A stretch of DNA of 64,000 nt from Escherichia phage PinkRuby. The DNA lies in sequence record PP925839.1. One strand, written 5' to 3'. Below, one piece after another: positions 45,671 to 46,082 of the stretch; the first letter of the stretch is position 1; every line of letters begins with the position of its first letter. The notes below the pieces were generated by a model that worked only from the letters and a program-made list of their open reading frames with translations, searched no databases and had not been told where the DNA came from. Both the position numbers and the translations under genes were made by a program.

Positions 45671-45714
45671 TTAGTACCTTATATAAATTATAATACATTT
45701 TATGAAGCTAATAA

Positions 45715-46074
45715 TCAATACGGTTTAGCATCAAATTTTCTTTCGATTTCAGGAGTGAAATATAATTCTTTACCACGTTTGGAAAAACGACCAATAATAT
45801 GATAATTATTCTCATCAAACGTGATATTACCAATATCCATAGCTTTCAACCAAATATCGATATTTCTATCTAGTTTTATATCAAAATTCCAATACGGAGA
45901 ACTATTACCAAAAATACTACAAGCGGATTCAGTGAAACAACTGCTATAAATCTTGTCTTTAGGAACTACTAATTGATAGACGCCTTTAATAAACTGAGGA
46001 CCCTGCCATTTTGGTTGTTTCGCGTCTTTTTCTAATAGAATAGGGTAATAATTAAAATTCATATTTTCCGCCAC
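45715..46074 (-). CDS. hypothetical protein inserted between frd and td
   Basis: 119 aa from GTG (or 115 aa from ATG at 46062); no recognisable domain. Confidence 0.55.
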   Translation of the reverse strand: MAENMNFNYYPILLEKDAKQPKWQGPQFIKGVYQLVVPKDKIYSSCFTESACSIFGNSSPYWNFDIKLDRNIDIWLKAMDIGNITFDENNYHIIGRFSKRGKELYFTPEIERKFDAKPY

Positions 46075-46082
46075 GTGTTATT

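Follow-up and report, generated by a model that had tools for sequence, protein, structure and literature searches.

Layout of the frd-td interval

The window analyzed here, a 64,000-nt stretch of DNA from Escherichia phage PinkRuby, is that of a Tequatrovirus (a T4-like coliphage) and is 99% identical to phages teqskov and Shfl2 across the frd-td stretch. On the minus strand the genes follow in the order gene 32, frd.3, frd.2, frd.1, a DUF7247 ORF, an 81-aa ORF, frd, an ORF hereafter referred to as X, td, nrdA.2, nrdA.1 and nrdA. From the frd stop codon to the td start codon there are 412 nt (45671-46082) with X as the sole ORF inside, in agreement with the initial annotation, which had placed a gap of about 410 bp with an ORF of 115-119 aa between the two genes. 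The features of the interval are the following:

46083..46667, minus strand: frd, dihydrofolate reductase, 194 aa (Pfam DHFR_1, 6.2e-19; frd is at the same place in the teqskov and RB32 annotations)
46083-46085, minus strand: frd stop codon, TGA
46078-46086, minus strand: putative relic td start, ATG AAA TAA (ATGAAATAA), sitting on the frd stop
46075..46089, minus strand: left direct-repeat copy, TAAATGAAATAACAC, spanning the frd stop and the putative relic two-codon td start (repeat search, T4 junction alignment)
46063..46074, minus strand: the 12 nt 5' of the X ATG (GTGGCGGAAAAT), holding a Shine-Dalgarno-like stretch and an alternative GTG start (direct sequence reading)
45715..46062, minus strand: X (RB32ORF229c, PHROG 1928), 115 aa from its ATG (profile, tblastn, dN/dS, AlphaFold2)
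45715-46074, minus strand: X as read from the alternative GTG (46074), 119 aa, MAENMNFNYY...
45690..45718, minus strand: sigma-70-like site, TTGATT-17 nt-TATTAT, reading towards td (consensus scan)
45671..45714, minus strand: X-td spacer, 44 nt, with the -10 element and AAGG (Shine-Dalgarno-like for td)
45659..45673, minus strand: right direct-repeat copy, TAAATGAAACAATAC, the functional td start (repeat search)
45668-45670, minus strand: td start codon, ATG
44810..45670, minus strand: td, thymidylate synthase, 286 aa, intronless (Pfam Thymidylat_synt, 3e-95, full length)

A longer frd ORF extending to 46694 is probably not used. For X, the ATG is preceded by a purine-rich, Shine-Dalgarno-like GGCGGAAAAT and is the start given in public annotations. 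Read along the minus strand, the PinkRuby junction is ...GTATATAAATGA AATAACAC GTGGCGGAAAAT ATG[X]...TGA TTATTAGCTTCATAAAATGTATTATAATTTATATAAGGTAC TAAATGAAACAATACC..., while the corresponding T4 junction (NC_000866) is ...GTATATAAATGAAACAATACC..., where frd and td overlap by 4 nt (ATGA), as the initial annotation stated for T4, and no ORF is found or annotated in between. The mini-ORF ATG AAA TAA on the frd stop (46078-46086, minus strand) is kept in all seven of the X-carrying loci compared; as a speculation, it could still catch ribosomes as they terminate, before the X start located 15 nt farther downstream.

Other parts of the neighborhood vary as well, and optional small ORFs form a mosaic along the whole region between gene 32 and td. 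Between frd and frd.1 there are two further ORFs absent from T4, at 46667-46912 and 46924-47256 (minus strand); the 81-aa ORF is phrog_3183 (RB32ORF231c), and the 110-aa ORF, a match to Pfam DUF7247, is missing from RB32 too. The td gene of T4 is split by the I-TevI intron, which is also found in locus L012 and in Salmonella phage CGG4-1 and is missing from PinkRuby. We considered whether X and the td intron are mutually exclusive and ruled this out, since L012 carries both.

Conservation and predicted structure of X

The gene is not new, since the annotations of hundreds of relatives already list X as a "hypothetical protein": the identical protein is present on 341 public contigs, under that label in all of them, and of the 580 phage records in which a tblastn search finds X, 362 reach ≥90% identity. 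Seven X alleles differ at 10-14% of third-codon positions and carry 0-3 amino-acid changes, which corresponds to a dN/dS of 0-0.05 at a dS of 0.22-0.34 (about 0.25). Relative to the teqskov allele, X shows 12 synonymous and 0 non-synonymous differences, with the flanking frd and td 99.1% and 99.8% identical, respectively. The occurrence of 12 synonymous differences amid near-identical frd and td indicates that the X allele was swapped by recombination while selection kept the protein constant. Judged by these substitution patterns, X is a genuine gene under selection, far beyond a chance ORF. That it might be an unexpressed chance ORF has practically no probability left; nothing but the missing functional annotation speaks for it, the dN/dS already refutes it, and the family is kept down to 20-30% identity with invariant residues and a confident fold prediction.

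We also considered whether X is unusually uniform, as after a recent sweep. This was ruled out, as the identity of X is that of the backbone genes; what is unusual is how far frd and td have diverged. Within the genus, nrdA, nrdA.1, gene 32 and X share 93-99% nucleotide identity, and the greatest divergence in the neighborhood is that of frd and td, with 79-86% nucleotide identity between allele classes. The 100 nt on each side of the frd/td junction are 92-100% identical despite the divergence of the two genes. The divergence of frd and td could be due to allele exchange, possibly tied to intron homing.

No domain had been recognized in X in the initial annotation, and this stands: searches of Pfam, NCBIfam, PADLOC and PDB sequences, with both the single protein and a 40-member profile, returned no match (for Pfam, none even at E ≤ 1), and profile comparison with the neighboring families DUF7247, Frd2 and NrdA.2 indicated that they are unrelated to X. 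From an alignment of 40 sequences, AlphaFold2 built a model of high confidence (pLDDT of 89.6, pTM of 0.83), for which Foldseek against viral models matched only uncharacterized proteins of T4-like phages. The model has strands at residues 6-12, 27-34 and 62-64, a helix at 68-77, and strands at 80-82, 86-96 and 99-104 (E-E-E-H-E-E-E). X is thus predicted to be a compact, beta-barrel-like domain, and its strand-strand-strand-helix-strand-strand order is like that of an OB fold, which we define as a barrel of five strands, the third and fourth of which are separated by a helix. OB domains that bind nucleic acids, such as those of RPA/SSB, S1, HIN and the N terminus of RecO, are therefore candidates for the closest known systems. 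The family lacks a structural relative by these comparisons, and a solved structure would thus probably bring in a fold that is new or very divergent.

The invariant residues of the family are W19, G91, K95 and G97 only, with Q16, G27, Y29, F93 and F102 near-invariant. Conserved positions are aromatic residues and glycines, plus Q16, K95 and often R92, and cluster in the C-terminal hairpin GRFxKxG. The family alignment was also examined for conserved Asp, Glu, His, Cys or Ser, and none was found. The family is mildly basic, with a median pI of 8.7. The OB-like strand order, the mildly basic character and the lack of conserved catalytic-type residues weakly suggest that X may be a non-catalytic protein that binds a nucleic acid or another protein.

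States of the frd/td slot and probable origin of X

The initial annotation called X an "extra" ORF. This is correct relative to T4, from which X is absent; it is a T4-centered description, however, as X is the majority state in the sequenced T4-like coliphages. X is present in T2, T6, RB3, RB14, RB32, RB33, RB51 and PP01, and the RB32 GenBank record describes RB32ORF229c as "flanked by 9 bp repeat." When the phage collection was probed with 80 nt of the T4 junction, 559 records covered it, and an evenly spaced sample of 36 full-coverage rows was typed: 23 carry X (a span of approximately 495 nt), 7 are in a 286-nt state that holds a different ORF, hereafter Z, and 6 are uninterrupted as in T4. 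Z is a 68-aa ORF (phrog_9550, approximately 135 records at ≥90% identity) unrelated to X, which begins on the frd ATGA and finishes on the td ATG; it was located as follows:

L010 4582-4788, L008 893-1099 (frameshifted) and L021 4670-4879: Z, 68-69 aa (MSNKLKVKDVPNAMALF..., phrog_9550)

By subtraction, the plain overlap accounts for approximately 60 of the 559 records. The resulting allele frequencies are estimates, obtained by subtraction and among the matches listed: in the T4 genus the slot holds X alone in about two thirds (PinkRuby, T2 and T6 included), Z alone in about a fifth to a quarter, and neither in the remainder, to which T4 belongs, so that the direct overlap of T4 is a minority state of about 11-17% (one in six to nine sequenced relatives). 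Homologues of Z at 40-47% identity occur in phages of approximately 150 kb from another group (ESCO13, nepoznato), which indicates that Z crosses phage families.

Beyond the genus, X belongs to a family that was already defined. It matches phrog_1928 with an E of 9.5e-36 over residues 8-115, which is full-length membership, and the family is found between frd and td of T4-like genomes with one exception, on contig L022. RB32ORF229c, Shfl2p237 and PHROG 1928 denote the same gene as X (96-100% protein identity, with the same position and flanking repeat, and nothing that differs), and the PHROG 1928 family is without an assigned function, a Pfam entry or a solved structure. Homologues with 31-45% identity lie right after frd in CIP9 (Kanagawavirus), Mineola (Jiaodavirus), CGG4-1 (Gelderlandvirus) and Moon (Moonvirus); in these four phages and in contigs L020, L021 and L023 their start and stop codons overlap those of the neighboring genes. 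A second ORF (Y) in CIP9, CGG4-1 and Moon is a paralogue of X by alignment and likewise matches phrog_1928. The nearest relatives outside the genus are contigs L020 and L021, at 63-66% identity, where the order is frd-X-Y-(Z)-td with all genes translationally coupled, and the 69-aa ORF before td in L021 belongs to phrog_9550, the same PHROG as Z. The occurrence of homologues in the frd-td interval of many genera indicates that this interval is an old home of the X family, and the T4 genus shows three reduced versions of the frd-td array: X, Z and none.

When 1.84 billion cluster representatives were searched exhaustively by profile, 42 family members were found. Their lengths are 95-139 aa, except for fragments of 37 and 49 aa and the repetitive 899-aa P0039, which was dropped as a probably spurious match. 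Long forms match phrog_1928, and another T4-like contig has one of them between frd and td. A single member was seen outside the slot, P0032, a 139-aa long form at 3001-3420 of the short contig L022, which adjoins an NMN-transporter gene and a DksA/TraR-like zinc-finger ORF and not frd. P0013 (NCBI, 195 aa) was at first a candidate fusion and was dropped, as it adds no domain: its last 45 residues are a Jiaodavirus-type X joined to an unrelated 150-aa N-terminal part without a Pfam match, and its probable origin is a chimeric assembly or a frameshift. A paralogue of X elsewhere in the window was looked for and not found.

The initial annotation further described X as "inserted," and two features of the junction support this: the frd stop carries a putative relic of the td start (ATGAAATAA), and X is flanked by a direct repeat of that start (15 nt with 13/15 identical, spacing of 416 nt, by repeat search). 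The sequence on the frd stop matches the td start at 10/12 positions vs. 7/12 for the start of Z. We consider it most likely that an X cassette from a relative of the array type recombined into a frd/td overlap of the T4 type. Such an insertion would have reduced the former td start to a dead remnant of two codons on the frd stop, broken the translational coupling of frd to td, and put a conserved segment with promoter-like and ribosome-binding sequences before td; the insertion, the loss of coupling and the placement of the promoter are steps that we infer from the junction sequences. The plain overlap is also present in more distant relatives with Frd 65-78% identical. In L020 and L021, X is 63-66% identical and Frd 48%, the reverse of the other genera, where Frd is the more similar of the two. 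The 12 nt immediately 5' of the X ATG can be aligned, in frame, to ATGGTGAAAAAC, the N-terminal extension of the L020 homologue; this is a short alignment for which MAFFT gives a second option, and 46063-46074 may be homologous to that extension. If an insertion took place, it would be ancient, given that the X alleles within the genus are old (dS of about 0.25).

The strongest competitor, to which we give a serious but clearly smaller chance, is that X is a vertically inherited remnant of an ancestral frd-X-Y-Z-td array and that the T4 overlap was derived from it by precise deletion between short direct repeats. The X family occupies this interval in many genera, and the X alleles of the genus are as old as the backbone genes by dS and by nucleotide identities. 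The Z junctions are homologous to array junctions, which fits a deletion between ATGA junctions, and the flanks of overlap-type and insert-type genomes are up to 96-100% identical. Deletions between short direct repeats are common in T4 genetics. The case for insertion is also weakened in that TAAATGAAA is a frequent gene-junction word, with 9 copies in the window vs. 3.5 expected, and in that Z resembles a deletion derivative of the array. However, the left boundary of X bears the td-start sequence (13/15), for which there is no reason in a frd-X junction derived from an array, and in the array junctions X overlaps frd directly. The plain overlap in relatives at the Frd identities given above, and the greater closeness of X than of Frd to L020/L021, also run counter to a vertically inherited remnant. 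We therefore favor insertion over deletion by a factor of approximately two to three, a direction that rests on approximately 15 nt of sequence.

A sigma-70-like promoter for td in the spacer had been proposed in the initial annotation. TTGATT-17 nt-TATTAT (45718 to 45690, minus strand) does match the consensus at 9/12 positions with a spacing inside the 16-18 nt used, and is followed by AAT to give TATTATAAT; its -35 hexamer overlaps the X stop codon, however, so that the site is not wholly inside the spacer. The number of promoter-like matches in the region is at background, with 10 sites in 2.6 kb vs. 11.4 expected from shuffles. What makes a td promoter plausible is the conservation of the spacer: the 38 nt before the td ATG have 0 substitutions in seven alleles whose synonymous sites differ by 10-14%, which indicates that the segment is constrained, and a 54-nt segment with the promoter-like site is ≥95% identical in 343 of 376 records, with one copy per genome. 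The simplest reading, which seems plausible, is that the segment serves as a td promoter and ribosome-binding site replacing the lost coupling to frd. The invariance is a sign of constraint in the sequence, not that the constraint is transcriptional. Folding of the spacer with the 5' end of td gave no significant RNA structure (z = -0.96), the sole Rfam match was a Drosophila lncRNA model below threshold, and a terminator scan at the locus returned no stem-loop. A MotA-type middle promoter (AGCTTCA box) was considered and is kept as a possibility only, as the box stands 10 nt from TATAAT, compared with the usual 11-13 nt between the MotA box and the -10 element.

Candidate roles of X and significance of the slot

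Taken as a whole, the account that we judge probable, with a confidence a little above even, is that X is an accessory gene of the early region in a slot with three alleles, which came in by cassette insertion and would encode an OB-like, non-catalytic binder. Since T4 does without it, X is presumably dispensable in laboratory hosts.

Among more specific roles, X may be a counter-defense or host-takeover factor that is kept or lost according to the hosts met, which would explain its presence/absence polymorphism. X is optional among very close relatives, its slot takes alternative small ORFs, and it is a small protein of the early-gene region under strong purifying selection and without a catalytic signature. 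PADLOC gave no defense-model match, although its library holds defense and not anti-defense proteins; the literature search gave no support, and the fixed position across genera would fit a housekeeping accessory role equally well. We regard a counter-defense role as unlikely, if worth keeping in mind. Still less likely is that X assists or regulates the thymidylate-synthesis enzymes Frd and Td, or else the T4 dNTP-synthesizing complex, as an accessory partner. Its placement and translational coupling between frd and td are conserved in several genera, as one would expect of such a partner, but gene order is broadly conserved in these phages whatever the function, T4 and approximately a third of its relatives are without X, and one family member stands elsewhere, beside an NMN transporter.

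Optional ORFs between conserved genes that are polymorphic among close relatives are also typical of the seg and mob genes of T4, and X could accordingly be a free-standing homing endonuclease or another selfish mobile gene. It is flanked by repeats, two records are labeled "putative homing endonuclease," and frd and td vary less in the 100 nt on either side of the junction than farther away from it. Against this, X has no GIY-YIG, HNH or LAGLIDADG match, there is no nuclease family among the 40 members, and conserved acidic, His or Cys residues are missing. The seg and mob proteins are far longer than X, which at 115 aa has approximately half their size; the alleles of X share 95-96% nucleotide identity as the backbone genes do, and its orthologues in the same slot are stably coupled in the operons of other genera. 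A selfish element of this kind is very improbable. We also considered a transposable element with a target-site duplication and rejected it: there is no transposase, X is the sole ORF, and the two ends share no inverted repeat other than one of 18 nt at 78%, in AT-rich DNA.

A further comparison is with the cassettes that Arbiol et al. reportedly described in 2010, promoter-early stem-loop cassettes that are said to be promoter-carrying ORFs of T4-type hyperplastic regions. These cassettes are similar to X in being small optional ORFs with an early-type promoter or promoter-like site and in having alternative ORFs per slot; they differ in that X has a single promoter-like site, on its 3' side, and no stem-loop.

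Our search of the literature on the locus tag, the frd-td junction and studies of accessory genes gave nothing relevant. What the analysis adds to the existing annotations is the slot with three alleles in which the T4 state is rare, the tandem paralogues in other genera, the putative relic td start, the constrained spacer before td, and the lack of a significant structural relative. On a broader and rather doubtful view, PHROG 1928 might be a previously unrecognized fold family of divergent OB-like binders specific to T4-like phages, whose single, tandem or absent copies, alternating with the 68-aa ORF, would tune thymidylate or nucleotide supply or escape from host defense, with the slot as a cassette-exchange locus that helps to set T-even host range.

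As an uncharacterized accessory gene that is already in the databases, X matters little alone. The locus illustrates, nonetheless, that T4, the reference genome, can be atypical, as the textbook overlap of frd and td occurs in a minority of its relatives. The slot also amounts to a natural experiment with three alleles (X, Z and none) in otherwise near-identical phages, so that if X or Z affects host range, defense evasion or nucleotide metabolism, a comparison of T2 and T6 with T4 would reveal it cheaply.
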